DNA of 64,000 nucleotides from Candidatus Omnitrophota bacterium (GCA_015494465.1 WGBD01000001.1:25030-89029), one strand, 5' to 3'. Positions 35,114 to 64,000 are shown, numbered from the stretch's first letter. The notes: a model not told the origin generated them from the sequence alone. Program-made: numbers and translations.

Positions 35114-35133
35114 CCAACAATACCTTTTTCCAA

Positions 35134-35361: not shown

Positions 35362-35379
35362 CGTTGCCCTTTCTTCTTA

Positions 35380-45990: not shown

Positions 45991-47318
45991 AGCAGAAGCT
46001 GACCCAGACCACATCCATCCGACAGGAGATACACCTCACTCCCCAGATGCAGCAGTTTCTCAAGGTCATACAAATGCCTGCATTGGAACTGTACCAGTTT
46101 ATACAAACCGAACTGGAGAACAATCCCCTCCTAGAGGCGGAGATGGACTACGAGGTGCTACAGGACCAACCCACGCCGCCAGAAGACATAACTGAGACCC
46201 TGCCCGATCCCGACACCCTCTTCACCCAAGACCTCTACAATCCCGTAAACGAGCAATACGACTACGGAGACAGCGACCACCTTCGTCCTGAACCAACCTG
46301 TAGGGAGAACTGGCGGAGTCAGGCAGTAAAAGACCTCAGGTTAACACTGGATGAGAGAGAGGCCAAGATCGCAGAGTACATAATATTCAACCTCGACGAG
46401 GAGGGCTTTCTCAAACTCACCGACGAAGAGATCGCCCAGGCTCTGGGGGTTGAGGAAGAGGAGGTCCAATCGACACTTGCCCACCTGAGACAGATACTGC
46501 CTCCCGGTCTCACCGCCCGCACCGTGAAGGAGTGCCTCCTCCTGCAGATAGAACGACGGGAAGGCAGGGAAAGTCCGACCTACCGCATAGTAAACGAGGC
46601 CTTCTCCGACCTCATACGCAGAAGATACAGGAAGATCGCCCGAGAATTAAAGCTGCCCCTAAAACAGGTCAACCTCGTCGCCCAGAACCTTTCTCGATAC
46701 CGCACCCGTCCATTGGTCGCCAAGGACATCCCCGCCTGCGCCTACCCCGAATACGAGATAAAGGTAGTGGACGGACAGATAGTGATAGAGAGGATATCCA
46801 CCCTGCCCGTCCCAAGGCTTCGTTTAAATCAAAGGTACATAGAGACCCTGCGCAATTCCAAGGACAGATCTGCCCGCAAGTTCCTCTCCCATTACCTGCA
46901 AAGGGCAAAGGCAGTGATACAGGCCACCCGAGAGCGGGAGGAGAAACTGCTGTCTCTCCTGCAATTCCTGGCCCAGCGCCAACGGGAATTCGTAGAGAGT
47001 GGACCTGCTTACCTAAAGCCCCTCACCATGAAACAGGCCTCGCGTACCACCGGCCTGTCGGAATCAACCATCTCCCGACTGGCTAATAACAAGTTCGTGC
47101 AGGTCCCGTGGGGATGCATCAGGATAAAGGACTTCTTCCTCAATCCCCTCTCCTACACCAACGACACACCCAGAGATATGATATTGGGAATCATCAGGGA
47201 GATCATAGAATCCTCGGACAAACGCTTATCCGACGAGAAGATACGGGAACTCCTCAAGGAACGCGGTATACAACTATCCCGCAGGACAGTGAACAAATAT
47301 AGGCACATGCTGGGATGA
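45981..47318 (+). CDS. rpoN: RNA polymerase sigma-54 factor
   Basis: 445 aa; region I, core-binding region, C-terminal RpoN box RRTVNKYR; start overlaps comM stop by 10 nt. Confidence 0.92.
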   Translation: MAMKQKLTQTTSIRQEIHLTPQMQQFLKVIQMPALELYQFIQTELENNPLLEAEMDYEVLQDQPTPPEDITETLPDPDTLFTQDLYNPVNEQYDYGDSDHLRPEPTCRENWRSQAVKDLRLTLDEREAKIAEYIIFNLDEEGFLKLTDEEIAQALGVEEEEVQSTLAHLRQILPPGLTARTVKECLLLQIERREGRESPTYRIVNEAFSDLIRRRYRKIARELKLPLKQVNLVAQNLSRYRTRPLVAKDIPACAYPEYEIKVVDGQIVIERISTLPVPRLRLNQRYIETLRNSKDRSARKFLSHYLQRAKAVIQATREREEKLLSLLQFLAQRQREFVESGPAYLKPLTMKQASRTTGLSESTISRLANNKFVQVPWGCIRIKDFFLNPLSYTNDTPRDMILGIIREIIESSDKRLSDEKIRELLKERGIQLSRRTVNKYRHMLG

Positions 47319-48507: not shown

Positions 48508-48814
48508 CCAGATCGTCCTCCCACTCCAGACCTGCAAGCGGATTCTGAATCACGGCATCGTAATCGTAAAGGCAATAAATGGCCTCCCTGCTAACCTTGT
48601 AGTGAGTGTAATATCGGATGGCTCCGACCATCACCACCAAGGTACAGGCCAGCACCACCCCCCATCCCCCTCGCAGTAACAGGCCTCGCCATCCGGGGAC
48701 TACCCTGCGCCTTTCCTCCTCCAAGGCCCTTTTGAGGATGACGCCCCACAGCCCCTTTGGCGGGGATTCCTTGAGACCCTTCATCCCCTCGTACAACCTG
48801 TCTATCCTGTCCAT
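48482..48814 (-). CDS. hypothetical single-TM protein, putative anti-sigma factor
   Basis: 110 aa with one TM segment; start overlaps ECF sigma stop by 13 nt; no HxxxCxxC zinc motif, so assignment is positional only. Confidence 0.4.
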   Translation of the reverse strand: MDRIDRLYEGMKGLKESPPKGLWGVILKRALEEERRRVVPGWRGLLLRGGWGVVLACTLVVMVGAIRYYTHYKVSREAIYCLYDYDAVIQNPLAGLEWEDDLDDGTGIDS

Positions 48815-49341
48815 AACCCCTCCTGCTTCAAGAGGATCCGTCCCTGTTTCCTAAACTCTTCCCTGGCCCGATTGAGGCGACTCTTTACCGTGTTTACACC
48901 CATCCCCAGGGCCCTGCCTATCTCCTCGTAAGATAGCCCTTCCACCTCCCGCAAGACCAATATCAACCGCGTCTCCGGCGACAATCGCCTGAGTATCTCC
49001 CTCACCAATTCCTTGTCTTCCCACCTCTCACCAGGGCGATCGTCTGCCTTCAAGGTCTCTTCCTTTATCCCGCAATCCTTTCTCCTGCGAAGGTAATTGA
49101 GGGCGGTATTCACCGTCGCCCTGTATATGTAGGTCTTCAAACTGGAACGGAACATAAACCCTTTAACCTTCCGATAAAGGCGCAAGAAGACCTCCTGCGC
49201 CAGATCCTCTGCCTCGGAAGGGTTGCCCAGGACATTGTAGGCAACGCTGTACACGAAAGAGCCGTACCTGTGGTAGACCTCCTCAAAGGCCCGCAGGTCC
49301 CCTTTACGCAGTCGCTCTATCAGGTCCCTGTCCTCAACCAT
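48802..49341 (-). CDS. ECF-type RNA polymerase sigma-70 factor
   Basis: 179 aa; region 2 (...YRYGSFVYSVAYNVLGNPSEAEDLAQEVFLRLYRK...) and region 4 HTH (...LSYEEIGRALGMGVNTVKSRL...). Confidence 0.9.
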   Translation of the reverse strand: MVEDRDLIERLRKGDLRAFEEVYHRYGSFVYSVAYNVLGNPSEAEDLAQEVFLRLYRKVKGFMFRSSLKTYIYRATVNTALNYLRRRKDCGIKEETLKADDRPGERWEDKELVREILRRLSPETRLILVLREVEGLSYEEIGRALGMGVNTVKSRLNRAREEFRKQGRILLKQEGLWTG

Positions 49342-49357
49342 AATCCCGTCTCAATAC

Positions 49358-49386
49358 ATTAGACACGCAAAGGCGCACTTAAGTTC
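49358..49386 (-). promoter_or_regulatory. candidate ECF-sigma-dependent (autoregulatory) promoter upstream of ECF sigma gene
   Basis: Minus strand reads GGAACTT-N16-GTCTAA, about 16 nt upstream of the sigma ATG, matching the sigE/ECF consensus (-35 GGAACTT, -10 GTCTAA). Confidence 0.55.
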
Positions 49387-49404
49387 CCCAGAGATTCACC
49401 GATA

Positions 49405-49434
49405 GACAAAAAGAGGGGGATCAGCTCCCCCTTT
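49405..49434 (-). terminator. intrinsic terminator downstream of nitroreductase gene
   Basis: Minus-strand RNA AGGGGGA-gcuga-UCCCCCU followed by CUUUUUG; about 30 nt after nitroreductase stop. Confidence 0.6.
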
Positions 49435-49465: not shown

Positions 49466-49978
49466 CTACTCTAACCTATCCCAGTGCAGTACCTCGTCAA
49501 GGGAGCGCTTGTTCCTCGGAAGATCCCAAAGGGAAGGATCCGCCGGCCTCCCCACCGCTATCACGCTCACCAACCTGTATGCCTCGGGATCCGCCCCGCA
49601 GAACCTCACGACCTCCGGGGCGTAGTCCTTCTTGTCCCCTGCAATCCAGCACGAGCCATATCCAAGGGCCGTAGCGGAAAGGAGGATGTTCTCTGTGGCA
49701 GAGGAACCGTCCTCCAGATACTGCTTGGTCGGTCGGCACAACACGATTATCGCGCACCCGCAATCCTTGAGGAACGGCCCGTTCCTTCCCACGATCCGGG
49801 TCAGCTCCTCCAACCGCGCCTTGTCGGTTATCACTACGAACTCCCATGGCTGTTCGTTGCGTGCGGTGGGGGCAAGCCTGCCCGCATCCACCATCAACTC
49901 TATGTCTTCCCTTTTTACCTCTGACCCGTCGTACTTGCGGATGCTCCTGCGCCTGCGCACCACATCAAAGAAATCCAT
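49466..49978 (-). CDS. nitroreductase family protein
   Basis: 170 aa; RRSIRKY N-terminal motif and nitroreductase fold. Confidence 0.8.
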   Translation of the reverse strand: MDFFDVVRRRRSIRKYDGSEVKREDIELMVDAGRLAPTARNEQPWEFVVITDKARLEELTRIVGRNGPFLKDCGCAIIVLCRPTKQYLEDGSSATENILLSATALGYGSCWIAGDKKDYAPEVVRFCGADPEAYRLVSVIAVGRPADPSLWDLPRNKRSLDEVLHWDRLE

Positions 49979-49988: not shown

Positions 49989-50801
49989 CTAATTTCCTAT
50001 GCACAACCCCTTGCACTCGTAATCCATAAGCCTGCGCAGGGCGGAAAGGACCGCCATAAAACTGGTGCGGGGGTTCTCCGGTGAAGGTAGGTTCTCGGTG
50101 CGGGTAAATATCCTGCCGTGGCTTCCCTCCACCACGAGTTCGTGTACATTAGTGGATAGGGCGGGATCTGCCACTATCCTTACATACACCCCTCGCATCC
50201 GCCCTACTGCCAGACTCACCGTCGCTGCGACATTGATGTTCTTGGGAAAGTACCTCACCGCCTGCCTGACCGTGCCGGAGAAGACCTCTGTCTTCTCATT
50301 CAGAGAAGACAAGTCTATTCCCTGCTTCTTAATGTACTCCACCCCTGCCAGTCCGGATGGAGGTTTGTAGGTCGTCAATGTTATTCTCTTTATCCTACCG
50401 AGGGCAGCGGACTTCAGGGCATCTATACCCGATATCGCCCCGCTGGGCACCAAGACCCTGATACCCACCTTTTCCGCTCGCTCCAACAGATCCCCACAGG
50501 CCAGCAATCCCCCCACGCTCAAGACCATCAGGTCCTTCCGATGCCTTATGCACAACTCCAGGACATCCCTCACCACCGAGACTACCGCAGTCTCCAACAC
50601 CAGGTCTACCGAGGAGACCAACCTATCAAGGTCCTTAACCACCCTTACCCCCCAGCGCCTGTTGACCTCCTCTACGCGCAGGGGATCTACCTCGCACACT
50701 CCGCCCAACCGCAGATGGGGGAACATTCCCCCAACGAGATGCTCCACCACAACCGAGCCTATCGCCCCACAACCGACGACACCGACCTTCTTCTTCCTCA
50801 T
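49989..50801 (-). CDS. nadX: L-aspartate dehydrogenase (NadX-like)
   Basis: Rossmann VGVVGCGAIGS; C-terminal ...NINVAATVSLA...IVADPALSTNVHELVVEGSHGRIFTRTENLPSPENPRTS resembles my recollection of Thermotoga NadX. Confidence 0.65.
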   Translation of the reverse strand: MRKKKVGVVGCGAIGSVVVEHLVGGMFPHLRLGGVCEVDPLRVEEVNRRWGVRVVKDLDRLVSSVDLVLETAVVSVVRDVLELCIRHRKDLMVLSVGGLLACGDLLERAEKVGIRVLVPSGAISGIDALKSAALGRIKRITLTTYKPPSGLAGVEYIKKQGIDLSSLNEKTEVFSGTVRQAVRYFPKNINVAATVSLAVGRMRGVYVRIVADPALSTNVHELVVEGSHGRIFTRTENLPSPENPRTSFMAVLSALRRLMDYECKGLCIGN

Positions 50802-51655
50802 CCCCGCTCCCCGGCCCTGAAGACCACATTGTCTATCAGCCTGGCCCGGCCGAACCAGACCGCCATCGCTAAGACATACCTCTCCCCGGGAGCTAACTTC
50901 CTCACCGGTGCCATGTCCTCCCAGCGCACCAGCTCCACATAATCGACCTTTCCCCCCGCCATTTCCACATCCCTAGCCAGTTCCTTCAACACCCTGCCGA
51001 CCTGCCTGCCTGCGAGGAGTTCCCGTTTGCCCTTCAACAGGCTCTGGTATATGATGGGAGCCTTTCTCCTCTCCTCTTCAGATAAATACACATTGCGAGA
51101 GCTCATCGCCAGACCGTCAGGCTCCCTGACTATCGGCATTATCCTTATCCTTATCGGGAAGTTGAGGTCCGCAACCATCTGTTCTATGATCCTGGCCTGC
51201 TGGACATCCTTCTGACCGAAGTAGGCCACATCCGGCATCACTATGTTGAACAGTTTGGCCACCACCGTACAGACCCCCCGAAAGTGTCCGGGCCGGGATG
51301 CCCCACAGAGGTGCTTATCCAATTCCTTTACCTCTACATAGGTGAGAAAGGGTTGAGGATACATTTCCTCTACGGAAGGTGCGAACACGAGATCTACTCC
51401 CGCCTCCTTACACAGTTTAAGGTCCCGACGCAGATCCCGGGGATACCTGCGGTAGTCTTCTCTGGGACCAAACTGTATGGGATTCACGAAGATGCTGACC
51501 ACGACGAAGTCGTTGTACTTGCGGGCCTGGCGGATAAGTGAGAGGTGCCCCTCGTGGAGGTAGCCCATGGTGGGAACGAAGCCCACCCTCTGACCTCGCC
51601 TCTTGGCCGAATCAACTGCCTTGCGCACCGTGGTTATCTTCTTGGCTACCTTCAT
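50798..51655 (-). CDS. panC: pantoate--beta-alanine ligase
   Basis: 285 aa; GFVPTMGYLHEGHLSL HIGH-type motif. Confidence 0.92.
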   Translation of the reverse strand: MKVAKKITTVRKAVDSAKRRGQRVGFVPTMGYLHEGHLSLIRQARKYNDFVVVSIFVNPIQFGPREDYRRYPRDLRRDLKLCKEAGVDLVFAPSVEEMYPQPFLTYVEVKELDKHLCGASRPGHFRGVCTVVAKLFNIVMPDVAYFGQKDVQQARIIEQMVADLNFPIRIRIMPIVREPDGLAMSSRNVYLSEEERRKAPIIYQSLLKGKRELLAGRQVGRVLKELARDVEMAGGKVDYVELVRWEDMAPVRKLAPGERYVLAMAVWFGRARLIDNVVFRAGERG

Positions 51656-53742
51656 GACCCACTATTATACGACAGTTCCAGCGCCTCCTCCACTATCCGT
51701 GGCTCTATCCCCTCCATACACACCTTTACCTCCCGCGGACAGTCCTTTTTATAACAAGGGGCACAGGTATCCAGATAGACTACCCGAAATCGAGCCTTGA
51801 TCCTTCCCGGCGGAAGGGGGACATGCCTTTGGGGCGAGGTAGGCCCGAAGTAGACCACCGTCGGCACCTTGAGGGCAAAGCCGAGGTGCATAAGGGCACT
51901 GTCCGGGGTTATCAGCAGAGAAAGGCTTGCTACTATCCGCAACAGTTCCTTAACCGAGGACCTTCCCACGAGGTCCACCAAGGAAATCCCCTTAGAGGAG
52001 AGCTCCCGAACCAACTCCTTCGCCACTTCTCTATCCCTATCCACCCCCAACAGGACGAAGGTCGCCTTCAGCTTTGCGGAAAGGTCCTCTATCACCCGCA
52101 GGATCTGATCCTTATCAAGAGACTTACTTTTCCAGCGGGATGACATCACGATGCCAATCAATCTATCTTTCATCTCTCCGCTTACCAGATTGGCGAGGAG
52201 TTTGAGCCTGACGGTCTCCTTCTCCTCGTCGGAGACTTCAAATAGGGGAGACTCCGGAGGGATGGGCTGGATCCCGGCGGACCTCAGGAATCTCACCTGC
52301 TCAAGAAGGGGGAAGTCCTGAACATACTCTATCGGATCCGTGTAGAGAAACCTCCCCAACTTCCGGGCATAGCCAAGTGTCCGGTAGGCCCCGGACCGGC
52401 TGGCCAGGAACTGCGTCTTCACCTTCCCCTGCAGGTCAAAGACCACATCCGGACCCCAGCGTCTTAGCCATCTTCCATCCACTCCCCGGCAATCCTTTGC
52501 CCGCTCCCCCCAGAGATCGCAGGTGTACTCAGAACCCACCACCACAAGGTCAGAACCCGGAAATTGCCTCCGTATAGACTCAAACGAATAGGTCCCCAGC
52601 ACGACATCCCCAAAAGAGGAGGTCTTGATAATGCCTATCGAATAGGTCCCGTACACCTCCTCGTAGACCTTAAGCGTGCGCTCGCACATCTCCTCAAGGC
52701 TATAACGCTGACTCTCCCTAAACCCCCTCTCCGCCAAGGCACTGGCCAGGTCCCGCCTGCGAATCAGCAATTCCATCTTCTCTGCCCAGTCGCCCGGATC
52801 GCCGGGCCGGGCCAGAAGTCCGGTCTGAGAATGGGCAATCAACTCGTTGAGCGCGGGAAGGTCCGAGGCGATAACCGGACGGCCTACTGCCCAAGCCTCC
52901 AGGACTGCCCTCCCGAAGGACTCCGGATACACCGAGGGCACCAGCACCGCATAGGCCTTGGCCAGCAATCCCGCCACATCCTTAACCGGCCCCAGGAACC
53001 TGACCGACGATCCCAAGGAAAAGCGGGTAATCAGGGAACGCAGGCGGGAATAGTACTTCTCCTTCCGCCCCACATCCCCGGCTACCCACAATTGGGCACT
53101 GGGGAAGTTCCTGACCACCTTGGCAAAGGCCTCGAGGGCAACATGGATCCCCTTGTTCGGGGTTATACGGCTTACGATGAGGAATATCGGCTCATCCACT
53201 ACCCTCGCCTTGGGGAATTCCTCCCGTTCAACCCCGCGGGGGATAACCACTATCTTGGCCTCCGGGACCCCAAACACCGAATGCATGTGTTCCGCTATCA
53301 ATTGGGAGGGAGTTATCACCCGCCTGCCCATCCCCATCACCCAGGAGATGGGACCGCGGGAATACAGGCCGTGGCAGGTGGTAACGAAGTTCACCACCTT
53401 GGGGTACCTCTCTCGGGCAAACCTCCGGCGGTTGACCCAGCGCACCGCATGATACCCTATCCAGCCCGGCACCCGGGAGCGGGCATGGACTATGTCCACG
53501 CCCAATTCCTCTATCAAGTGCGCCAAGCGAGGGACCTGGGCGAGCATAACCAGAGGATTCTTGGAGTGCACCGGCATACGGATGTGCCTTGCCCCCATCC
53601 TCTCAAGGCTGGACTGCCTCCATCCCCCGGAAGAGACGACTATCGCGGTGTGCCCCTGAGATATCAGGTAGGAGCAGACCTCAACAGTGCCCCGTTCCAC
53701 CCCCCCGCTGTCGAGTTTAGGCAGGATCTGGAGTACCTTCAT
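51652..53742 (-). CDS. bifunctional glycosyltransferase: N-terminal GT4 fused to C-terminal GT9 (heptosyltransferase-like)
   Basis: N-half GT4 ...PSVYPESFGRAVLEAWAVGRPVIASD...; C-half GT9 ...IKTSSFGDVVL...LLITPDSALMHLGFALKVPTVVYFGPTSP; single 696 aa ORF. Confidence 0.75.
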   Translation of the reverse strand: MKVLQILPKLDSGGVERGTVEVCSYLISQGHTAIVVSSGGWRQSSLERMGARHIRMPVHSKNPLVMLAQVPRLAHLIEELGVDIVHARSRVPGWIGYHAVRWVNRRRFARERYPKVVNFVTTCHGLYSRGPISWVMGMGRRVITPSQLIAEHMHSVFGVPEAKIVVIPRGVEREEFPKARVVDEPIFLIVSRITPNKGIHVALEAFAKVVRNFPSAQLWVAGDVGRKEKYYSRLRSLITRFSLGSSVRFLGPVKDVAGLLAKAYAVLVPSVYPESFGRAVLEAWAVGRPVIASDLPALNELIAHSQTGLLARPGDPGDWAEKMELLIRRRDLASALAERGFRESQRYSLEEMCERTLKVYEEVYGTYSIGIIKTSSFGDVVLGTYSFESIRRQFPGSDLVVVGSEYTCDLWGERAKDCRGVDGRWLRRWGPDVVFDLQGKVKTQFLASRSGAYRTLGYARKLGRFLYTDPIEYVQDFPLLEQVRFLRSAGIQPIPPESPLFEVSDEEKETVRLKLLANLVSGEMKDRLIGIVMSSRWKSKSLDKDQILRVIEDLSAKLKATFVLLGVDRDREVAKELVRELSSKGISLVDLVGRSSVKELLRIVASLSLLITPDSALMHLGFALKVPTVVYFGPTSPQRHVPLPPGRIKARFRVVYLDTCAPCYKKDCPREVKVCMEGIEPRIVEEALELSYNSGS

Positions 53743-55091
53743 CAGTTGTGGTGCACCATTTGTAGTTTAACGAAGTCCTTTGCCAGAGAGTAGACCTTGC
53801 CCGCACCCAAGAATACCAAACAATCCCCGGATCGGGTCGCCGCCCTGACCTCGTCCAGGTCGTAGGAGAGCATAGCGTAGGCAGGAATAGACATCCCCCG
53901 ATTGAGCTCAAGGGCAAACCTCTCCGCGCTTATACCCGGAATAGGATCCTCACTGGCGGAATGTATCGGGGTAACCAAGACCGCATCCGCATACCTCAAC
54001 GCAGACATAAACTCCGACCAGAAGGCGGAGAAACGACTATATCTGTGGGGCTCAAAGACCACCAACATCCTCCGCTTGCCTATCACCTGCCTCACTGCCT
54101 CAAGGGTGGTGCGGATCTCGGTGGGATGATGGGCATAATCGTGCACGACGGTGATCTCTCCCTTCAACAGGACATCCATCCGGCGTGAGACTCCGGGAAA
54201 CGATGCCATAGCCCTCAAGGCGTCCTCTCCCTTTATCCCCAAGATGTCACAGACCTGCAGGACACCGCAGGCATTCCTGACATTGTGCACGCCCACCAAC
54301 GGCAGACGCTGGGAAAGGATCCTCTCCTCCCTCCTGTCCAGTATCTCCACCCGCATAGAGAAATCCTCCCCCACATCAAACCTTAGGGGGAGATAGCGCC
54401 CCTCCTCCACGAACCTCACATTATCAAATCCCGCAAACTCCTTGCCCAACTTACTCCCGAGTCCGAAGAGGAATCGGGTCTCCTTCCTCTGGAGGATAAA
54501 ATTGCGAAAGAACTCCGCCATGCCCGCTTCGTCCTGATAGAAGTCCACATGCTCCAGTTCGAGGTAAGGGATAAACATGACCTCCGGATTAAAGAGAGAA
54601 AAGGTCCCGTCGCTCTCGTCCAACTCCAGGACCGAAAAATCCCCCATCCCCAACCAAGCGTTGCTGTTTATCTTCTTCACCACCCCTCCGATGTAGGCGG
54701 AAGGCTGGTATCCCAGTTCGTGGAGAACCCAGGCCAGAAGCGCAGAGGAGGTCGTCTTGCCGTGGGCACCGGTTACCCCTATTATCCGGGTGGACTTGAA
54801 TATGGCCTGGAGAATCTCCGCCCGGTGGTAGATAGGGATCCCTAGATCCCGAGCCAGTACCAACTGGGGATCGTCGTCAGATATGGCACTGGAGCGCACC
54901 ACCGCAGAGACCTTCCGGTTCTTAACGACCTCCAGGAGGTCTTCGAGAACGAGACCCTGCCTCACCAGATCGTCTATTATGTAGTTATGGGAGATGTCGG
55001 TCCCGCTGACGGTGTGCCCCATCTGCAGGAGCAGGCGGGCTATCCCGCTCATCCCGATGCCTCCCACTGCCAATATGTGTATGTGCATCAC
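53742..55091 (-). CDS. murC: UDP-N-acetylmuramate--L-alanine ligase
   Basis: 449 aa; N-terminal GIGMSGIA, ATP-binding GAHGKTTSSALLA. Confidence 0.9.
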   Translation of the reverse strand: MMHIHILAVGGIGMSGIARLLLQMGHTVSGTDISHNYIIDDLVRQGLVLEDLLEVVKNRKVSAVVRSSAISDDDPQLVLARDLGIPIYHRAEILQAIFKSTRIIGVTGAHGKTTSSALLAWVLHELGYQPSAYIGGVVKKINSNAWLGMGDFSVLELDESDGTFSLFNPEVMFIPYLELEHVDFYQDEAGMAEFFRNFILQRKETRFLFGLGSKLGKEFAGFDNVRFVEEGRYLPLRFDVGEDFSMRVEILDRREERILSQRLPLVGVHNVRNACGVLQVCDILGIKGEDALRAMASFPGVSRRMDVLLKGEITVVHDYAHHPTEIRTTLEAVRQVIGKRRMLVVFEPHRYSRFSAFWSEFMSALRYADAVLVTPIHSASEDPIPGISAERFALELNRGMSIPAYAMLSYDLDEVRAATRSGDCLVFLGAGKVYSLAKDFVKLQMVHHN

Positions 55092-55369
55092 ACCACCTCT
55101 ACTTCCCAGTCAAGCAATTCCACTTCCGGATAACCCCTAAGGTAATCCAACAACGATTCAACCCCGCTGTCTACCTCTCCCCTGACCTGCCTCAACATCG
55201 CTACCGACAACATGGTCCTCTGCCACTTGTCCTTGAAGTCCGTCTCTATCACCGAGGCGTTAAAGCTCTCGCGGACCTTGTTCTTCAGGGCCTTGAGCAC
55301 ACTGCGCTTGTGCTTTAAGGACCTGACCTGCGGTATGTGGAGGTCCAGGTGCACGATGGCCACGAACAT
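55088..55369 (-). CDS. DUF503 (YlxP-like) protein
   Basis: 93 aa; MFVAIVHLDLHIPQVRSLKHKRSVLKALKNKV... resembles YlxP/DUF503. Confidence 0.6.
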   Translation of the reverse strand: MFVAIVHLDLHIPQVRSLKHKRSVLKALKNKVRESFNASVIETDFKDKWQRTMLSVAMLRQVRGEVDSGVESLLDYLRGYPEVELLDWEVEVV

Positions 55370-55378
55370 AGCGGATTT

Positions 55379-56383
55379 CTATCCCAACACTACCGTGCGG
55401 TTCTTTCCCTGTCGCTTCGCGGTGTAAAGGGCCTGATCCGCTATTTCTATTATAGAATAAGGATCCTTTCCGTCCTCAGGAAAAGCTGCCACGCCTACGC
55501 TGACGGTCACATTAAGGGTCTCGTTATAGGCAATTACGGGACTGGCGGAGACCACCTCACATATACGCTCCCCCGCCCTCTGGGCACCCTTCTTGTCGGT
55601 GTCCAATAGGATCACGCAGAACTCCTCCCCACCGTAGCGACCCACCAGATCTATCTCACGGGCGGTGGACTTTATGCGGGAGGCCACCTCCTTCAGGACC
55701 GCATCTCCTACGAGATGGCCGTAGGTATCGTTTATCTTCTTGAAGTCGTCCACATCTATCATCAAGAACCCAAGTGGACTGCCGAACTTGTTCGCCCGCA
55801 ACAAACTCTCAAAGAACCTATCCAGCACATACCTGCGCACATACACACCGGTCAGCTCGTCGGTTATCGCCATCTCTTCTATCGCCTTGTACAGCTTAAT
55901 CCTGCGCATCCCCAAGGCAAACTGATTGGCGAGGATGTGGAAGACATCCAGATCCTTCTCCTTACACCCCTTCACCGCAAGGTATCCCCGGATGTCGTTC
56001 TCCACCCTTATGGGGAAGAGGTAGTACTCGAGGCTATGGGTCAGTGACAACTGACTGCTGTCTATGAAGATACAGTCCTCTACCTCTATGTATTCCTTTA
56101 GCTTCTCCTTAAATGTCTTGAACATCTCCACCTCATCGAGGGTCTTGGTAAGGTCCTTGATTATCTCGTAGAGTCTTACCTCCTTCTCCGCTGCCCGCTC
56201 AAACTGCCGGTTCTTCGCCCGTTGGCGCTCCAGATCGTAGTACATCTTCTTGCGGGTGGACTCCAACTCTTCCACCTTTGCCTTCATTTCCGCCACGATC
56301 TTGCGGTGCTTCCTGACGAGGTAAAGTATCACCCCAAGACCGATCCCCACGACTATGGTCAGACTAAACATCAAGCAGAACAT
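55379..56383 (-). CDS. diguanylate cyclase (GGDEF), membrane-anchored
   Basis: N-terminal TM and coiled coil; GGDEF domain with RYGGEEF active site and RxxD-like context. Confidence 0.85.
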   Translation of the reverse strand: MFCLMFSLTIVVGIGLGVILYLVRKHRKIVAEMKAKVEELESTRKKMYYDLERQRAKNRQFERAAEKEVRLYEIIKDLTKTLDEVEMFKTFKEKLKEYIEVEDCIFIDSSQLSLTHSLEYYLFPIRVENDIRGYLAVKGCKEKDLDVFHILANQFALGMRRIKLYKAIEEMAITDELTGVYVRRYVLDRFFESLLRANKFGSPLGFLMIDVDDFKKINDTYGHLVGDAVLKEVASRIKSTAREIDLVGRYGGEEFCVILLDTDKKGAQRAGERICEVVSASPVIAYNETLNVTVSVGVAAFPEDGKDPYSIIEIADQALYTAKRQGKNRTVVLG

Positions 56384-57627
56384 ACCCGGTCCTTCCCCAT
56401 AGACTTGGCCCGATACAGCCTCTCATCCGCCTTCTTTATCAGGGTGGTTCGGTCCCGACCGTCTTTGGGATAACTGGCCACTCCTATGGATACGGTAACC
56501 CGCGTAGGGGTGCGCCTGAGGACCACCTCCTTCTGGGCGATCTCCTCCCTTATGCGCTCAGCTATCTCCACCGCGGACCTCGTGTCCTTGCCCTCCAGAT
56601 AGATAAGAAATTCCTCCCCACCGTACCTGGCCACGATGTCCTTGTGTCTGCGGGTGTGCTTCAGAAGGATCTTTGCGATGCTCTTTATGATGATGTCTCC
56701 TGCGGTGTGGCCGTAGGTGTCGTTGTACTTCTTGAAGTCGTCTATGTCCAGCATCAGGAGAGAGAAGGTGCTCTGCTTGCGATAGAGGAGGATCTCGTCT
56801 AACCTCTCCAGTATGTACCTCCTCAGGTAAAGCCCGGTCAGGCCGTCGTGCAGGGCCAACGATTCCATCCGCTTGTAGAGTATAGTATTGCCTATAGCCA
56901 CTGCAGCAAGGTCCCCTATCGTCTGGAGAAAGGAGAGATCCTCGGAATAGAAAGTATACTTGTCAAACGAGTTCAACCTCAAGATCCCTATTACCTTCTC
57001 TTCCAATATCAACGGCACCGAGATGAGGGAACCGACTGGGGTGGTTTTGCCCAGACTCTCCAGATCGAAGCGATAATCCTGACTGGTATCCTCTATGAGG
57101 AGGGGACAGGCGTGCTTTATTATCCACTTGTCGAAAATGTCTCCGGTCTTGGGCAGTCGATAAAAGTCCACATCGACCCCTGCGGAATCCACCAGTTCTA
57201 GACGCTGTTTCTCCTCGTCCACGATGTAAATCACGCATTGATCCGCCTTGGGTATCATGTCCAGAGTCTTTTGGACTATGTAGTGGGCAACTGCCTCCAG
57301 AGAGAGGTTATAACTCAACTTCTGCATCATGGACTCGAGCGCGAGATAGCGATTCTTCTTTCTCTGGAGAGCAGATTCTATCCGGGAGGCCTGCTCTAAC
57401 TCTGCCTGAAGGAGATTTATCCGCTCGTAGAGGTCGCTTTTCTTTATCTCCCAAGCACAGACCGAGTTGCTTATCCGACGATAAATGAAGACGATCGCGG
57501 AAAGGACGACTATGTAGGCCAAAAACAAAAAGAAGAGGTTATAAGGACAGGTCAGGGTTACATACACAAGAGGAACGACTACGTAAGCAGAGATCGCAGT
57601 GATTGTTAGTAGACTACGCTTAAACAA
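56371..57627 (-). CDS. diguanylate cyclase (GGDEF) with TM region and GAF-like sensor
   Basis: N-terminal TM helices, GAF-like middle domain, GGDEF domain with RYGGEEF. Confidence 0.85.
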
Positions 57628-58726
57628 TTGCCTTCTCTGTGTCCTTGTCGAAAAAGTGGGCCTTTGACATGTCGAAAATTACTTCTACTTCCGAATTGAC
57701 GCTAGGGGCCAAGTTCGGCCTCATCCTCGCTACAAAGGTCCTCACCCCGGTGGTGAAATAGACGAAGGAATCCGATCCCATAGGCTCTATCACCTCGCAT
57801 ATCACCTTCGCCCTGTTGCCCACCTGTTTGGCAAAGGTAACGTAACCTATGTCGTGTATGTCCTCGGCCCTTATCCCCATTATCACCTCTTTACCGAGAT
57901 AGGGCTTCAATTGGCCGTACATAGATTCGTTGATGCGCAGTTCCAGTCCATCGCCCTTGAAGTAGTACTTGTCCTCCCTCCTCTCTATCTTCCCAGTGAA
58001 GAAGTTCATGGGCGGGGTCCCGATGAATCCCGCCACGAACTTATTGGCGGGCTTCTCGTAGACGACGATCGGGTCGTCAAACTGCTGTATCTCCCCTGCC
58101 CGGAGTATGCATATCCTGTCCCCCATGGTCATGGCCTCGACTTGATCGTGGGTGACATATATCATCGTGGTCTTCAACCGGGCATGGAGGCGCTTTATCT
58201 CGGTGCGCATCGTCACCCTCAACTTGGCATCCAGGTTGCTGAGGGGCTCGTCGAACAAAAAGACCAACGGCTTACGCACTATCGCCCTCCCGACCGCTAC
58301 CCTCTGACGCTCTCCTCCCGATAGTTCCTTGGGCTTGCGATTCAGGAGGTGCTTTATCCCCAAGATCTCGGCTGCCTCCTCTACCCTGCGCCTTATCTCA
58401 TCCTTAGGATACCGGCGCAATTTCAGACCAAAGGCCATGTTGTCGAAAACAGTCATGTGAGGATAGAGGGCGTAGTTCTGGAAGACCATAGCGATGTTCC
58501 TATCCTTCGGCGGGACATCGTTCACCAACCTATCCCCGATGTAAATCTCCCCCGAGGTCACGCTCTCAAGGCCGGCTATAAGCCTCAAGGTGGTGGACTT
58601 ACCACAACCTGACGGGCCGACCAACACCACGAATTCGCCATCTTTGATGTCCAGATTTATACCCTTAACCGCAACTACGCCTTTATCGTATCTTTTAACG
58701 ACATTCTTAAGCACTACCTTGGCCAT
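57620..58726 (-). CDS. ABC transporter ATP-binding protein, MalK/UgpC/MsmX type
   Basis: Walker [10 protein letters not shown], signature LSGGERQRV, Walker [14 protein letters not shown]-terminal TOBE-like regulatory domain; no adjacent permease or binding-protein genes. Confidence 0.88.
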
Positions 58727-58749
58727 AGACCTCTCCCCTAGCTGAAAGA

Positions 58750-59610
58750 CTACACTCGCTTATTACCCCAGAGTGCCTCCAAAAGCGTAATAAGCGTATT
58801 ACGGAGGTTTTTACGCTCTACAATCATATCAATTAATCCATGCTCCTGCAAGAATTCCGAACGCTGGAATCCCTCTGGGAGATCTTGGTTTATGGTCTTC
58901 TTTATAACCCGCGGACCGGCAAAACCTATCAACGCCCCGGGCTCGGCGATCAACACATCTCCCAGAGAGGCAAAACTGGCAAGGACCCCTGCCATGGTGG
59001 GATTGGTCAACACCGATATGAATATCCCACCCATAGACTGGTACCTGCCTATCACCGCCGAGGTCTTGGCCATCTGCATCAAGGAGAACATCCCCTCGTA
59101 CATCCTCGCCCCCCCTCCAGAGGCAGAGATGATGATAAGGGGAAGCATCTCCTCTATGGCCACCTCGGTTACTCTCGCCACCCGCTCGCCCAACACCGAA
59201 CCCATCGACCCCATAATGAACCGGGAATCGGTAACCGCAACTGCAACCCGCCTGCCGTTCAATCTGGCGGTGCCGGCCATTATGGCCTCGTCCATTCCCG
59301 TTTTAGTTCGAGCCTCTTCCAGTTTCTCTTTGTAGGTCTTGGGACCGGAGAAGTTCAAGGGATCGGCAGTACGGAGCTCGGTGAACATCTCCTGAAAAGA
59401 TCCCTCGTCAAAGGTCATCTTTATCCTCTCTTCAGCCGAGATGGAAAAGTGATGTCCGCAATTAGGACAAACCCAGAGGTTCTCCTGCAACTGCTCGTTA
59501 AGGATCATCTTGTAGCAGGCATCACAGCGGGTAAAGATATCCGAGGGGACGTCCTTTTTCTTGGTCTTCTTGAACAACAGAAAGCGTTTTCGCGGTTTAA
59601 ATACGCTCAT
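58750..59610 (-). CDS. accD: acetyl-CoA carboxylase carboxyltransferase subunit beta
   Basis: N-terminal zinc ribbon CDACYKM...CPNCGHH followed by carboxyltransferase domain. Confidence 0.92.
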
Positions 59611-60191
59611 GCCCTTTCTCCCGAATAAAGCCGACGCCTCCTTATGTAGGAATCCACCTCCTCCGGCACCAAGAACCGCACGGATAGGCCCTGGCGAATC
59701 CTCTCCCTTATCAAAGAGGAACTGACTTCTATCCTAGGCATAGACAGGTACACCACATCTACTATCCCTCGGAGCTGATCAGCCGAGCCCTCGCCATGCC
59801 TAGTCGCAACCGCAAATTTAACCAATTTTACCAGCTTTTCCCAGTCTTTCCAAGAAGACAGGCCCTGGAGGGCGTCCGCCCCCAATAACCAGTAGATCTC
59901 CAGATCCGGCCGTTCCCTCAACAGATCCTCCACCGTGTCTATGGTGTAGGTCGTGCCAGCCCGCTCAACCTCCCGGGTATCCAACTCGAATCCCTCAAGC
60001 CCAGATATCGCCAACCTCACCATCTCCACCCTATCCTCAGCAGGAGCAACCGGGCGCTTGTAGGCACTGGAGAAGTAGGGCATAAACACCACTTTCTCCA
60101 GCTCTAATTCCTCCAGGGCCCACTGGGCCAGGATGAGGTGACCTATGTGTGGGGGATCAAAGGCCCCACCCAGCACGGCAATCCTGTCCAT
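59607..60191 (-). CDS. nadD: nicotinate-nucleotide adenylyltransferase
   Basis: 194 aa; GGAFDPPHIGH nucleotidyltransferase motif. Confidence 0.9.
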   Translation of the reverse strand: MDRIAVLGGAFDPPHIGHLILAQWALEELELEKVVFMPYFSSAYKRPVAPAEDRVEMVRLAISGLEGFELDTREVERAGTTYTIDTVEDLLRERPDLEIYWLLGADALQGLSSWKDWEKLVKLVKFAVATRHGEGSADQLRGIVDVVYLSMPRIEVSSSLIRERIRQGLSVRFLVPEEVDSYIRRRRLYSGERA

Positions 60192-60195
60192 ATCC

Positions 60196-61476
60196 TCACT
60201 GCCTTATCTGTCCCTCGCCGAACACCACATACTTGTAGGTGGTCAACTCCTCGACCCCCATCGGCCCCCTGGCGTGGAGCCTGTCGGTGCTGATGCCTAT
60301 CTCCGCCCCAAGCCCAAACACTCCCCCGTCGGTAAATCTCGTAGAGGCGTTCACATAGACCGCAGCAGAATCCACCTCCCTCACGAACCGCAGACCTGAC
60401 TCGTAGTCGGAGGTGATAATCCCGTCGGAATGGTGGGAACCGTGCTCGTTTATCCAGTCTATCGCCTCGTCCAACGACGAGACTACCTTTATCGCGATTA
60501 TCAGGTCCAGATACTCCTCGTACCAATCCTCCTCCGAAGCGGGTTTGCAGTCTATTATCTGGCGCGTCCTTTCACATCCCCTTACCTCCACTCCGTGTTT
60601 CTTGTAGACCTCCGCCATCTTGGGAAGGAATGTCGGGGCAACATCCTCGTGGACCAGTATCTTCTCTATAGCGTTACACACCCCTGGGCGCTGGACCTTG
60701 GCGTTCTCGCATATCCTCACCGCCATCTCCACATCCGCACTCCTGTCCACATACTCGTGACAGACCCCTTTATAGTGCTTTATCACCGGGATAAGGGAAT
60801 TCTCGGTAACGAACCTTATCAGTCCCTCTCCTCCTCTGGGGATGATCAGGTCTATCAATCCCACCTGCTTGAGCATCTCCCCCACCGCAGACCTATCGGT
60901 CGTCTCAATAAGAGCTATGCAATCCGGATCTATGTCCACCTCTTTGAAAGCGGACTTCAGGGCGGAATATATCGCCATATTGGAATTGATTGCCTCTTTT
61001 CCTCCCCGGAGGATGGCACCGTTGCCCGACTTCACGCAGAGCCCGATGCAGTCGGAGGTGACATTTGGACGGGACTCGTAGATGATACCGATTACCCCTA
61101 TGGGCACCCGTACCTTGTGTATCCAGAGATCATCCTTGTTCCTCCAGGCGGATATCACCTCGCCCACCGGATCCTTGAGGTTTGCGATCTCCTCTAAGGA
61201 GACTGCCATTGCCTCTATCCGCCTCTCGTTCAACAGGAGCCTGTCCTTCATCGCCTGACTCAACCCGTTCTCCTCGGCCCACTGCATATCCTTCCGATTG
61301 GCAGAGATGATCTCCTGCATACGCTCCCGCAGGGCCTTGGCCATTGCCCGTAGTAACCTATCCTTCTCCCGCGAACTTGCCTTACCTATAGAGTAGGAGG
61401 CCCGTTTTACCCTCTGGGCCATGTCCCGCACATAACTGACCACATCCGTCTGCATAATCAACCCTCCTCGCTCCAT
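60196..61476 (-). CDS. proA: gamma-glutamyl phosphate reductase
   Basis: 426 aa aldehyde-dehydrogenase-fold protein with ProA-type layout; true start may be the ATG about 61455 just after proB stop. Confidence 0.9.
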   Translation of the reverse strand: MERGGLIMQTDVVSYVRDMAQRVKRASYSIGKASSREKDRLLRAMAKALRERMQEIISANRKDMQWAEENGLSQAMKDRLLLNERRIEAMAVSLEEIANLKDPVGEVISAWRNKDDLWIHKVRVPIGVIGIIYESRPNVTSDCIGLCVKSGNGAILRGGKEAINSNMAIYSALKSAFKEVDIDPDCIALIETTDRSAVGEMLKQVGLIDLIIPRGGEGLIRFVTENSLIPVIKHYKGVCHEYVDRSADVEMAVRICENAKVQRPGVCNAIEKILVHEDVAPTFLPKMAEVYKKHGVEVRGCERTRQIIDCKPASEEDWYEEYLDLIIAIKVVSSLDEAIDWINEHGSHHSDGIITSDYESGLRFVREVDSAAVYVNASTRFTDGGVFGLGAEIGISTDRLHARGPMGVEELTTYKYVVFGEGQIRQ

Positions 61477-62615
61477 ATCACCATATTGTCCCTGTGAATG
61501 GCCTCACGCCCGGCCCTTTTCCCGATAAATCTTACCATCTCCTCAGAGGACATCCCGGCAATCCCCCTGCCGATTTCTTCTCCTCCACAGAAGACCTCCA
61601 CCACATCACCCTTATTAAACTGCCCCACTATCTCCCTCACCCCGGCGGTGAGCAGGCTCTTTCCCCTGCAAGATATCGCCTCTCTGGCCCCTGCATCGAC
61701 GATTATCCTGCCCTTGGGACGGGCGATGTAGGCAATCCACATCCGTCGGGAGTCTATACGCCGACTCGCAGGTAAAAACAGCGTCCCGCGGTGGATCTTC
61801 CTGACCAAAAGGTCAATGAGTATATCCCGGGCGTGCCCGTTGGCAATTATGGTGTAGATGCCCCACTTGCTCGCAATAGAGGCAGCGTCCAACTTCGTGG
61901 CCATACCACCCACGGTGGTCCTGCCCCTGCGCTTACTGGAGACCATGGCCCGAATACCAGCATCTACTCTTTCTACCACCGGAACCACCTTACGAGAGGC
62001 AACATCCGAATACAACCCTTCCACATCCGAGAGTATTATCAGGACCTTGGCATCGCAGGCACCCGCCACCAGCGCAGAGAGCCGATCGTTATCCCCGAAG
62101 GCAATCTCCTCGGTAGAGACGGTGTCGTTCTCGTTCACCACCGGAACGATTCTGCGCTCTATGAGTTCGTTCATCGTGTTCTTGGCGTTGATGTACCTAC
62201 TGCGACTGCGCAGGTCCTCGGCGGTCAACAGTATCTGGGCGCAGGTAAGCCCTCTGGCGTGGAACAGGCGCGCGTACTTCTTCATAAGTTCCACCTGACC
62301 CACCGAGGCGCAGGCCTGGAGCAAAGGGATACTCTTGGGCCGGACATTCAATCCCAAGGCCGACATCCCCCCCGCCACCGCCCCCGAACTCACCAACACC
62401 ACCTGCCAGCCGTGCCGAACCAGAACCGCAACCTGACGCACCAGATTGGACATCCTGCGCACATTCAGGGCAAGCGAATTCTTAGAGGTCAGGAGGCTAC
62501 TGCCTATCTTTATCACACACCTCTTAGGCGCTATCTCCGGCAGATATAAGTGACCGTAGGAAGCGTTCATTCTCTTCTTCTGCTCTGGAAATGAATTCCT
62601 CATCCGCTCCCGCAC
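61458..62615 (-). CDS. proB: glutamate 5-kinase
   Basis: Amino-acid kinase domain (VIKIGSSLLT...) plus C-terminal PUA domain; ORF track start overlaps 3' end of upstream PHP gene, true start probably internal. Confidence 0.9.
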   Translation of the reverse strand: MRERMRNSFPEQKKRMNASYGHLYLPEIAPKRCVIKIGSSLLTSKNSLALNVRRMSNLVRQVAVLVRHGWQVVLVSSGAVAGGMSALGLNVRPKSIPLLQACASVGQVELMKKYARLFHARGLTCAQILLTAEDLRSRSRYINAKNTMNELIERRIVPVVNENDTVSTEEIAFGDNDRLSALVAGACDAKVLIILSDVEGLYSDVASRKVVPVVERVDAGIRAMVSSKRRGRTTVGGMATKLDAASIASKWGIYTIIANGHARDILIDLLVRKIHRGTLFLPASRRIDSRRMWIAYIARPKGRIIVDAGAREAISCRGKSLLTAGVREIVGQFNKGDVVEVFCGGEEIGRGIAGMSSEEMVRFIGKRAGREAIHRDNMVIWSEEG

Positions 62616-63195
62616 CCCTCAAGACCCTCCGCATCACATCGTACGGGAGCATGTCCTTGGGGGCGTGGGCGTCGTTATTCACCACCACGGATGCCCCAAT
62701 CTCCCGGGCCAATCTGAGGACCCAGCCATTGGCGTAGCAGTGCCCGGATCGGGTGGTTATCTCCAGCCTCACACCCTTGATCCTGGCCAACTCCACTTCC
62801 CTCTCCGAGATAAACCCCGGGTGGGCAAGGATGTCACAGCCCGCCTCTATTGCCGACAGATTCGTGCCCTCCGCAACCGGCTCAACCGGACTCTCCCCGT
62901 GGACAACCACCACCCTCGCCCCCAGGGTGCGGGCCAGAGAGATCATCTTGCCTATCTTGGAAGGCGGGACATGGGTCAACTCCACCCCAGGAAGGACCTT
63001 TAAAGGATAGTCCTTGGGCAGATTATCCACGAAGGTAATGAGGGACTCCAACACGAACTCCAGATTGGAGGCATCGCAGTGATCGGTAATAGCGATCACA
63101 TCAAAACCGAGAGACATGTATCGTTGGGCTATCTCCGACGGCACACAACAGCCGTCGCTAAAGACAGAGTGTATGTGCAGATCCGCCTTAAGCAT
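62524..63195 (-). CDS. PHP-domain metal-dependent phosphoesterase
   Basis: 223 aa; LHIHSVFSDG and ITDHCD His-rich motifs of the PHP family. Confidence 0.75.
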   Translation of the reverse strand: MLKADLHIHSVFSDGCCVPSEIAQRYMSLGFDVIAITDHCDASNLEFVLESLITFVDNLPKDYPLKVLPGVELTHVPPSKIGKMISLARTLGARVVVVHGESPVEPVAEGTNLSAIEAGCDILAHPGFISEREVELARIKGVRLEITTRSGHCYANGWVLRLAREIGASVVVNNDAHAPKDMLPYDVMRRVLRGAGADEEFISRAEEENERFLRSLISAGDSA

Positions 63196-63294
63196 ATTAC
63201 CTACCCCGTTTTACTTTATCTATCCTATAATACCACAAGTATGCCCTTTACCAACCAATGGGGCAATCTCTTTTTGCCCCTCTACACCCCAGCC

Positions 63295-64000
63295 CTATGT
63301 TCCCCAGCACACCAACAACGACACGCCTATGCAGTAAAGGCCAAAGAGGAACAGGAGGTGGGCCAAGACTACCCGGCGCAGGAGGGCCAGAGAGACCATG
63401 CCCGACAAGAACGAGACCAATATCCCTGCAGAACTCACCCAACCAAATCCCGCGGGGCTCTTGATGGCGGAGTACAAAAACGCCAAGGCGATGATGGGGA
63501 TTCCCGCAAGAAACGACAACTCAAAGGCGGAAAGGGGAGAGAAACCCAAGAGCAACAGCAGGGTTATGGTAATGCCCGAACGCGAGATCCCCGGGAACAC
63601 CGCTATCGCCTGTACCAGCCCCAGCAATATCGCCTCACCCCACCTTAGATCCCGCGCCTCTCTCCCCCCTAATCGGATTCCACGGGTACCCAGAAGGATA
63701 AAACCCATAGCGGTGAGTATCCCTGCGGTGTACCTCGGCTGGGAGACCAACAACTCCGCCAGAGGATCCAGTCTCAGGGCAACGAGGCCGGAGACTAATG
63801 TAACCAAAATCAACTTCAGGACAAAGACCCTGCCCTCCCTGCCGAACAAACACTCCAAGGCGAGCGTCTTTATCCGAGGATAGAAGTAGACCAACAGGGC
63901 TATCAAGGTCCCAAAGTGCAAAGAAGTCAACAAGAACATCTCCGGCAGGTTTGGCCGTATCCCTGCCACCTCGGTCAGGAACACCAGGTGGGCAGAACTG
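63295..64000 (-). CDS. uppP: undecaprenyl-diphosphatase (UppP/BacA), N-terminus beyond window end
   Basis: Polytopic membrane protein with PGISRSGITI motif; ORF open to the window edge. Confidence 0.8.
   Translation of the reverse strand, partial: SSAHLVFLTEVAGIRPNLPEMFLLTSLHFGTLIALLVYFYPRIKTLALECLFGREGRVFVLKLILVTLVSGLVALRLDPLAELLVSQPRYTAGILTAMGFILLGTRGIRLGGREARDLRWGEAILLGLVQAIAVFPGISRSGITITLLLLLGFSPLSAFELSFLAGIPIIALAFLYSAIKSPAGFGWVSSAGILVSFLSGMVSLALLRRVVLAHLLFLFGLYCIGVSLLVCWGT

Follow-up and report, generated by a model that had tools for sequence, protein, structure and literature searches.

A compact, probably complex fourteen-gene array in a Candidatus Omnitrophota genome, with a conserved promoter-like element inside accD

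How are genes transcribed and translated when almost nothing separates them? The question is raised by a run of 14 genes on the minus strand of a 64,000-nucleotide (nt) stretch of DNA from a Candidatus Omnitrophota bacterium (GCA_015494465.1 WGBD01000001.1:25030-89029), referred to here as the window. The run, hereafter the array, covers 13,730 nt (13.7 kb) from position 63195 to position 49466 and includes only 48 nt of non-coding DNA. Its genes encode, in order, a PHP-domain phosphoesterase, ProB, ProA, NadD, AccD, an ABC transporter ATPase, a GAF-GGDEF and a second GGDEF diguanylate cyclase, a DUF503 protein, MurC, a fused GT4-GT9 glycosyltransferase (GT), PanC, a NadX-type L-aspartate dehydrogenase and a small nitroreductase-family protein. 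A first-pass annotation of the window took the run for one apparent transcription unit with translationally coupled genes. The reading preferred here, with a confidence somewhat better than even, is that the array is an ordinary compact and probably complex operon, one instance of the general layout of its lineage and not a dedicated functional system. Gene content, junctions, sequence signals, synteny and synonymous constraint were examined directly, and the behaviour of the array in transcription and translation is inferred from them.

From the PHP gene to the nitroreductase gene, the 13 junctions measure -47, +2, +4, -4, +23, -8, -13, +9, -1, -1, -4, -4 and +10 nt, negative values being overlaps. 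They were curated from candidate start codons together with the upstream sequence, and the one ambiguous start, that of proB, was settled by comparison with relatives. Independent gene calls gave the same values on a Logan contig (L093) that was reached through an exact GGDEF protein match and is 100% identical to window positions 51841-64000. The same-strand layout, with spacers that lack room for intergenic promoters or terminators, is as expected for an operon. The nadD/accD and GT4-GT9/panC pairs share 4-nt ATGA overlaps, panC and nadX also overlap by 4 nt, and DUF503/murC (TGATG) and murC/GT4-GT9 overlap by 1 nt. The 13-nt overlap between the two GGDEF genes is identical in eight genomes. 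The 47-nt overlap of PHP and proB is real, as conservation of the ProB N-terminus (HLYLPEI.PKRCV) reaches upstream of the alternative GTG and the proB frame of four relatives opens just 9-15 nt before the same ATG. The N-terminal conservation rules out the GTG at 62516, with its spacer of +7, as the proB start. The +23 spacer between accD and the ABC gene is the widest of the array and among the widest in five of seven relatives. Nearly every junction had been described in the first-pass annotation as an overlap of 4-11 nt or a spacer under 25 nt; all 13 are at or below 25 nt, and the overlaps span 1-47 nt. The gene identities given there were all borne out by Pfam and NCBIfam searches. The count of fifteen genes was not, as the list itself sums to the 14 found here, and a region starting at 49989 contains neither the nitroreductase gene nor the terminator described in the same text.

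The best-supported sign of transcription starting within the array lies at the 3' end of accD. Extended -10 boxes were scanned across the block in eight genomes, and two of them occur at homologous positions in all eight. The accD element (58823..58851, minus strand) consists of a -35 hexamer TTGCAG, a 17-nt spacer and an extended -10 box TGaTATGAT; it stands 96 nt upstream of the ABC ATPase start, and its predicted transcription start site (TSS) is ~58816. In all eight genomes it precedes the ABC gene by 75-105 nt. Elsewhere the synonymous sites are saturated: only 92 of 1,597 amino-acid-invariant degenerate codons are codon-invariant (5.8%; 11 genes, codon alignments). Within the accD element, 8 of 11 such codons are invariant against a gene background of 9% (p=5.7e-7), and the variable synonymous sites lie in the spacer and the flanks. 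An unbiased 16-codon sliding scan of all 11 genes returned this element as the sole clear outlier, the next-best window having p ~4e-3. The element is also built from codons that this 54% G+C genome seldom uses, such as TTA (4% of Leu) and ATT (12% of Ile), and the probability of its codon string given the protein and the genome codon usage is 7e-6. RNA structure was considered as an explanation and ruled out, since no signal was obtained (z=0.18).

Two further candidates were found. The one inside nadD (59825..59853, minus strand) reads TTGGAA-N17-TGgTAAAAT and lies 214 nt upstream of accD, and it holds the homologous place in 8/8 genomes, 187-221 nt before accD. The synonymous sites of its hexamers are invariant and those of the spacer vary (codon-level test, p=0.02). 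The other, TGTCGTATAAT (51664..51674, minus strand), is a one-mismatch match with 8 nt between the end of its -10 box and the panC ATG. Near-leaderless PHP starts in relatives share this geometry. The candidate is also present in L001 and lies where the conserved block joins the lineage-specific tail. This panC box is a weak, lineage-specific candidate. The idea that panC carries an ancestral leaderless promoter was weakened, because panC of L096 lies in another run without a -10 box.

Multiple internal start sites and terminators had been named at the outset as the result that would speak against a single unit. Internal start sites have computational support: promoter-like elements exist, the accD one under synonymous constraint in eight genomes and two more as candidates. 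No canonical internal terminator was found. The single unit retains in its favour a bracketing promoter-like box and end terminator, together with the lack of a canonical internal terminator, and has the candidate internal promoters against it. In view of the candidate internal elements as a whole, one simple transcription unit is the less likely reading.

Both borders of the array carry signals. A gap of 99 nt separates uppP/BacA from PHP, and within it the hairpin GGGGCAA-AAAGAGA-UUGCCCC (63260..63280, minus strand) lies just past the uppP/BacA stop. It is the sole stem in the centroid fold (-12.1 kcal/mol) and a candidate terminator with a weak U tract that would close the preceding unit. 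The promoter-like site before PHP (63227..63254, minus strand) comprises a -35 TTGGTA (63254..63249), a 16-nt spacer and an extended -10 TGgTATTAT (63235..63227). It was found by promoter scan as the best match in the window, and its predicted TSS is ~63220. The motif TGTGGTAT(A/T/C)AT stands upstream of PHP in the window, L001, L002, L005 and L006 despite unlike upstream neighbours and unrelated upstream DNA. In L002, L005 and L006 the -10 box ends just 8-10 nt before the PHP ATG, so the PHP mRNAs of these genomes are probably near-leaderless. In addition, TGnTAnnnT boxes precede other gap-preceded genes of the window, and since boxes recur there and before PHP in relatives, the extended -10 looks like the promoter type of the clade. 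Motif counting alone proves nothing, as counts of the 11-mer TGTGGTATAAT across the window, with 2 mismatches allowed, show no enrichment (11 vs 9.9 expected). L007 is the most distant genome with the 11-gene block. There, PHP overlaps an upstream NfeD/ClpP-like gene by 4 nt (L007:1873-1876), two boxes, TGnTAAAAT at 45 nt and TATAGT at 15 nt before PHP, fall within the upstream gene, and the leading promoter, if any, would also be coding-embedded. A near-leaderless layout is also seen at the ComM-like gene at window position 44461 (plus strand; box 44441-44451, plus strand) and before PHP in relatives (L002:1860-1880, L005:1850-1876, L006:1840-1865, L094:1815-1840). The layouts suggest that mRNAs of this Omnitrophota clade commonly have no leader or almost none.

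At the downstream border, an intrinsic terminator (49405..49433, minus strand) is formed by AAGGGGGAGCUGAUCCCCCUC followed by UUUUUGU, with an 8-bp G+C-rich stem, a 5-nt loop and a dG of -13.6. A hairpin/U-tract scan found it to be one of just two compact G+C-rich hairpins with a U tract in the minus-strand intergenic DNA of the window. Neither a pattern scan nor the hairpin/U-tract scan detected a canonical intrinsic terminator inside the array. The array has 16 internal terminator-like matches over its 13.7 kb (~1.2 per kb). Their stems are short or irregular, their U tracts are poor, and their density is similar by eye to that of the other coding sequence of the window. For this reason the irregular in-gene hairpin/U-tract matches of the permissive scan were dropped as terminators. 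Compared with shuffled sequence, the pattern scan of 46-64 kb gave 25 terminator-like matches against 13.8 and 17 promoter-like matches against 9.6.

Signals for translation differ among the genes of the array. Shine-Dalgarno (SD)-like pairing is strong for proA, nitroreductase, ABC and murC, moderate for accD, PHP, nadX, GGDEF2 and nadD, and essentially absent for proB, GT4-GT9, panC and DUF503. The SD duplex values range from -12.1 for proA (GGAGGG) and -10.7 for nitroreductase (UAGGAGGGG) to -2.9 for proB and -2.8 for GT4-GT9; the ABC ATPase has the SD sequence GGGGAGAGG. For most downstream starts an SD falls within the preceding gene. Only 5 of the 13 junctions have canonical coupling overlaps (nadD/accD, DUF503/murC, murC/GT, GT/panC and panC/nadX). 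A spacer of ~20 nt nearly abolishes termination-reinitiation (PMC10666635), and 12 of the 13 junctions are well below that distance, the exception being accD to ABC (+23). The claim of translational coupling along the array is thus plausible at the five -4/-1 junctions and perhaps a few more, and unlikely from accD to ABC, where the spacer of +23 is joined to a strong SD (PMC10666635). The best candidates for termination-reinitiation are plausibly murC to GT and GT to panC, which overlap without an SD. The accD to ABC junction can be taken as the natural seam of the array because it combines the widest spacer, a strong SD and a conserved upstream promoter-like element.

Is such packing exceptional? 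Of the 59 same-strand junctions in the rest of the window, 44 (75%) are also tight (≤25 nt; Fisher p=0.057; 0.75^13=0.02), and overlaps are found at 8/13 junctions inside the array vs 16/59 outside (p=0.025). The packing of the array is only marginally beyond chance. According to a gene map based on a codon-usage score, 72 of the 74 genes of the window are on the minus strand and ~95% of the window is coding; this map replaced greedy longest-ORF (open reading frame) calls, in which shadow ORFs had led to wrong labels across the ribosomal region. Sixteen ribosomal protein genes form another tight run in the window. Among relatives, six loci of ~20 kb have 130 of 130 genes in one direction, with 75% of the junctions ≤25 nt and 40% overlapping. 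The longest tight runs of these loci comprise 7-14 genes, and one with 14 genes lies at an unrelated locus. In most prokaryotic groups ~15% of co-directional pairs overlap, with a maximum of ~30% (PMC6728339). As the clade loci reach 40%, the clade is extremely compact by comparison, and the array is a typical part of it. The phylum has small predicted genomes of 0.86-3.2 Mb (PMC10066038). The view of the first-pass annotation that the genome is streamlined agrees with all of this, namely the ~95% coding density, the 72/74 genes on one strand, the tight co-directional loci of relatives and the small-genome phylum (PMC10066038).

Comparison with relatives shows which parts of the array travel together. 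The first genome scan with MurC peptides yielded no relative, and the loci came instead from an alignment of the GT fusion. These loci are Candidatus Omnitrophota, and L009 among them carries the block. MurC homologues show a graded identity from 92% to 41%, followed by a drop to ~36%. Both the gene order and the tight spacing of the 11-gene block (PHP to GT4-GT9) are preserved in L001 (MurC 92%), L005 (67%), L002 (65%), L006/L009 (62%) and L007 (52%), and the genes flanking it on both sides differ in each genome. A conserved cluster, in the sense of the same order in diverged genomes with different flanks, is accordingly found for 11 of the 14 genes in five other genomes. Elsewhere the block is divided. 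In GCA_054040295.1, PHP to GGDEF2 and DUF503-murC-GT are ~80 kb apart on one contig. L095 has the run rmlACB-proA-nadD-accD-ABC-GGDEF-GGDEF-uvrD, and L091 has accD-ABC-GGDEF-GGDEF-DUF503-efp-accB-accC and onward. L010 and L011 keep DUF503-murC-GT. The core accD-ABC-GAF-GGDEF-GGDEF is common to 10/10 genomes examined, and in seven of the genomes proB, proA and nadD are neighbours. Only in the window is the block followed by the panC-nadX-nitroreductase tail; the contig of L001 breaks off inside panC, and at least this gene is seen there. In L096, panC and nadX have the same 4-nt overlap in a different tight run. On this comparative basis, the array is a mosaic of separately conserved modules.

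The most conserved proteins of the block are the ABC ATPase and the two cyclases (window 55379-58726, minus strand; L001-L007, L091, L094, L095). In relatives, the ATPase is 86-91% identical and the cyclases 74-86%, compared with 52-67% for MurC, 60-70% for ProB and 54-57% for NadD. Both cyclases retain GGEEF and an RxxD I-site, and the mean column identity of the GGDEF alignment is 90%.

The array can be pictured as modules joined head to tail almost without non-coding DNA: PHP-proB-proA-nadD, accD-ABC-GAF-GGDEF-GGDEF, DUF503-murC-GT4/GT9, panC-nadX and nitroreductase. Transcription would most likely start at the extended -10 promoter in the 99-nt gap before PHP, and read-through would be possible to the single terminator past the nitroreductase gene. 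Because the array has no intergenic space, extra promoters would be embedded in coding sequence. The putative promoter at the accD 3' end would drive ABC-GGDEF-GGDEF, and weaker candidates lie in nadD and before panC, so that the locus would form a complex, nested operon. Downstream genes are probably coupled by termination-reinitiation at the five ATGA/TGATG junctions, especially murC to GT and GT to panC, and the genes with a strong SD (proA, ABC and nitroreductase) probably initiate independently. To call the array one transcription unit with translational coupling is an over-simplification, and its transcript boundaries are inferred.

How does this reading stand against others? In a simple operon, all 14 genes would be served by one promoter ahead of PHP and one terminator past nitroreductase, no internal promoter would work, and co-transcription and coupling would tie the genes together. 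That the largest spacer is 23 nt, that the upstream promoter-like box is conserved, that the sole canonical terminator stands at the end, and that in-gene terminator-like density is no higher than in other window coding sequence would all fit. However, the simple operon is unlikely in view of the synonymous-site invariance of TTGCAG-N17-TGaTATGAT in accD across eight genomes (p=5.7e-7), rare codons included, and of the second element conserved in nadD. Moreover, the +23 nt from accD to ABC is too long for termination-reinitiation (PMC10666635), and the modules are separate in other genomes and so can be expressed alone. The reverse extreme, in which several independent short units are bounded by Rho-dependent or non-canonical terminators and coding-embedded promoters, and tight spacing reflects deletion bias without consequence for expression, is improbable. 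It would draw on the excess over shuffles of weak terminator-like (25 vs 13.8) and promoter-like (17 vs 9.6) matches in 46-64 kb and on the three internal promoter candidates. In contrast, the short or irregular stems and poor U tracts of the internal matches do not support it, the five canonical -4/-1 overlaps, two of them without an SD, make sense only on a shared mRNA, and a start codon inside the upstream gene leaves no room for prior termination. Selection might instead have maintained a super-operon that unites murC (cell-wall precursor), GT4-GT9 (lipopolysaccharide-core-type glycosylation), accD (fatty-acid synthesis), cyclic di-GMP (c-di-GMP) signalling and the supply of nicotinamide adenine dinucleotide (NAD), coenzyme A and proline, with a shared transcript matching envelope growth to metabolism. 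The 11-gene order persisting down to 52% MurC identity as both flanks change in every genome, the presence of accD-ABC-GGDEF-GGDEF in 10/10 genomes examined and the 74-86% identity of the GGDEF proteins, above MurC, ProB and NadD, speak for such selection. It is quite improbable nonetheless, since the block is broken at module borders in 3/10 genomes without gene loss, the GT4-GT9 fusion of other Omnitrophota lies beside GT4/GT9 genes and not murC, equally long heterogeneous runs exist at unrelated loci, and neutral persistence of adjacency in a compact one-strand genome needs fewer assumptions. A narrower possibility, that the core of accD, the orphan ABC ATPase, GAF-GGDEF and GGDEF is a dedicated and possibly essential c-di-GMP module, which links fatty-acid or envelope synthesis to transport energy and has its own promoter inside accD, and not a chance neighbourhood, is distinctly unlikely.

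The complex operon has its own difficulties, and several observations weigh against it. The accD element encodes a highly conserved AccD motif, and the nucleotide constraint could serve a role other than that of a promoter. In the more distant L091, TTG and TATGAT are kept, but TG and two other synonymous sites are changed. The nadD element is only nominally significant (p=0.02), and the panC box is not present upstream of panC in L096. The promoter elements were judged against a sigma-70 style consensus, which was assumed for Omnitrophota. Finally, the excess of terminator-like matches (25 vs 13.8) may leave room for weak internal attenuation or Rho-dependent termination.

The genes themselves, all on the minus strand, were found by listing and translating ORFs and then identified by Pfam and NCBIfam searches. 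The first gene encodes a PHP-domain phosphoesterase of the PRK06361 family (62524-63195; PF02811; NF004981, 267 bits vs a cutoff of 117). It is followed by proB, encoding glutamate 5-kinase with a PUA domain (61458-62570; TIGR01027, 363 bits), proA, encoding glutamate-5-semialdehyde dehydrogenase (60196-61455; NF001221, 614 bits), and nadD, encoding nicotinate-nucleotide adenylyltransferase (59607-60191; NF000840 and TIGR00482, both above their cutoffs). In one relative (L005:3662-4918; GCA_054035575.1), proA was called as two pieces of 86 aa and 323 aa, owing to a frameshift or an assembly error. The accD gene encodes the acetyl-CoA carboxylase carboxyltransferase beta subunit (58750-59610; TIGR00515, 367.5 bits vs a cutoff of 317). 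The UgpC/MalK-type ABC transporter ATPase (57620-58726; PF00005, PF17912; NF008653, 490.7 bits) has no permease gene anywhere in the array. The membrane-anchored GAF-GGDEF diguanylate cyclase has a TTG start (56371-57627; PF00990, PF13185), and its translation contains GGEEF and the I-site RHKD. The second membrane-anchored cyclase (55379-56383; PF00990) has GGEEF and the I-site REID, and is a paralogue that is 40% identical to the first over the C-terminal half. GGDEF2-like proteins of ~330 aa with 41-50% identity are widespread in Omnitrophota.

The DUF503 gene (55088-55369; PF04456, 83.5 bits) precedes murC, encoding UDP-N-acetylmuramate-L-alanine ligase (53742-55088; TIGR01082, 349.1 bits vs a cutoff of 335.1). 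The GT4-GT9 fusion (51652-53742; PF13439, PF00534, PF01075) is phylum-wide in Omnitrophota, with 32-52% identity over the full length (L009-L029), and a few Rhodospirillales/Stellaceae metagenome-assembled genomes (L030, L031, L033, L047, L059) match it through residue ~632-642. In other Omnitrophota (L012-L029) the fusion is followed by a GT4 gene and one to three GT9 genes, without murC. These neighbours from outside the clade of the window suggest a role of the lipopolysaccharide (LPS)-core type, and within that clade no further GT4/GT9 genes forming an LPS-core-type GT cluster were found beside the fusion. The panC gene encodes pantoate-beta-alanine ligase (50798-51655; PF02569, 376 bits). 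An exact look-up of the window PanC gave no match, and a 99% identical version is present in the collection. The L-aspartate dehydrogenase of the nadX type (49989-50801; PF01958, PF03447) scores 244.8 bits with NF009830, slightly below the cutoff of 267. In L096, panD lies in the same run as panC-nadX (L096:878-1219, 6001-7661). The overlap with panC, here and in L096, and panD in the L096 run hint that the NadX-type enzyme would feed aspartate into pantothenate rather than NAD synthesis. The last gene encodes the small nitroreductase-family protein (49466-49978; PF00881).

The surroundings continue the same layout. Directly past the array terminator, the sequence GGAACTT-N17-TCTAA (49387..49359, minus strand) lies upstream of an extracytoplasmic function (ECF) sigma gene (48802-49341). 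It resembles ECF-sigma promoters, and looks like an autoregulated ECF promoter starting the next unit. The sigma gene overlaps the gene of a 110-aa protein with a single transmembrane segment and no Pfam match, likely an anti-sigma factor, which is followed by a MiaB/MtaB-like radical-SAM gene. The only plus-strand genes of the window are those of a ComM/YifB-like Mg-chelatase ATPase and rpoN (44461-47318), and the GC skew is negative across 1-64000. The window also carries rpoB-rpoC, fusA, tuf, the S10/spc ribosomal run, and tRNA-Trp and tRNA-Thr (35133-35452); an Rfam search of the window returned only these two tRNAs, none within the array. At the other side, uppP/BacA (63295-64000, minus strand) is N-terminally short solely because of the window edge, and L093 contains the full 257-aa gene. 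Co-directional NeuB, nitroreductase and NUDIX genes lie upstream of it on L093, so the one-strand run extends beyond the window.

These results bear on how such loci should be read. Long overlapping stop/start runs of unrelated genes are the default in Omnitrophota and similar compact genomes, and should not be taken as functional operons or as a basis for guilt by association without a synteny check in relatives. The analysis gives a first sequence-based picture of promoters in this uncultured clade, in which the candidate type is an extended -10 (TGnTAnnAT), often 8-10 nt from the start codon. Synonymous-site conservation can expose promoters hidden in coding sequence where intergenic DNA is gone. 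Should the accD-ABC-GGDEF-GGDEF core turn out to be functional, it would offer a way into the c-di-GMP biology of a phylum for which one cultured representative has been reported.

Among known systems, the rpsU-dnaG-rpoD 'macromolecular synthesis' operon of E. coli is a complex operon of unrelated housekeeping genes with promoters inside upstream coding sequence. The array resembles it in its co-directional heterogeneous essential genes, minimal spacers, probable read-through and candidate coding-embedded internal promoters. It differs in being far longer (14 genes), and its internal promoters are proposed solely from sequence conservation. 'Uber-operons' are conserved neighbourhoods that persist through rearrangement, and the nested modules of the array likewise keep their order as the flanks reshuffle. 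The adjacency of proB-proA-nadD is widespread, usually with obg upstream and rsfS downstream; in contrast, the array has neither, as PHP precedes and accD follows. The array shares murC with the dcw (division and cell wall) cluster, but no other mur, fts or mraY gene stands beside it, the neighbours of murC being DUF503 and GT4-GT9 in the window and in the loci of nine relatives. Five junctions have the ATGA (-4) or TGATG (-1) form of the gene pairs known for termination-reinitiation (Huber et al. 2019, PMC6728339; Huber et al. 2023, PMC10666635). Those pairs were reported to be enriched for subunits of one complex, whereas none of the five canonical pairs of the array is a known complex. The overlap fraction, 8/13 in the array and 40% in the clade loci, is above the ~15% that is typical and the maximum of ~30% reported for Aquificae. 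The array is thus an uncharacterised instance of a well-known organisation.

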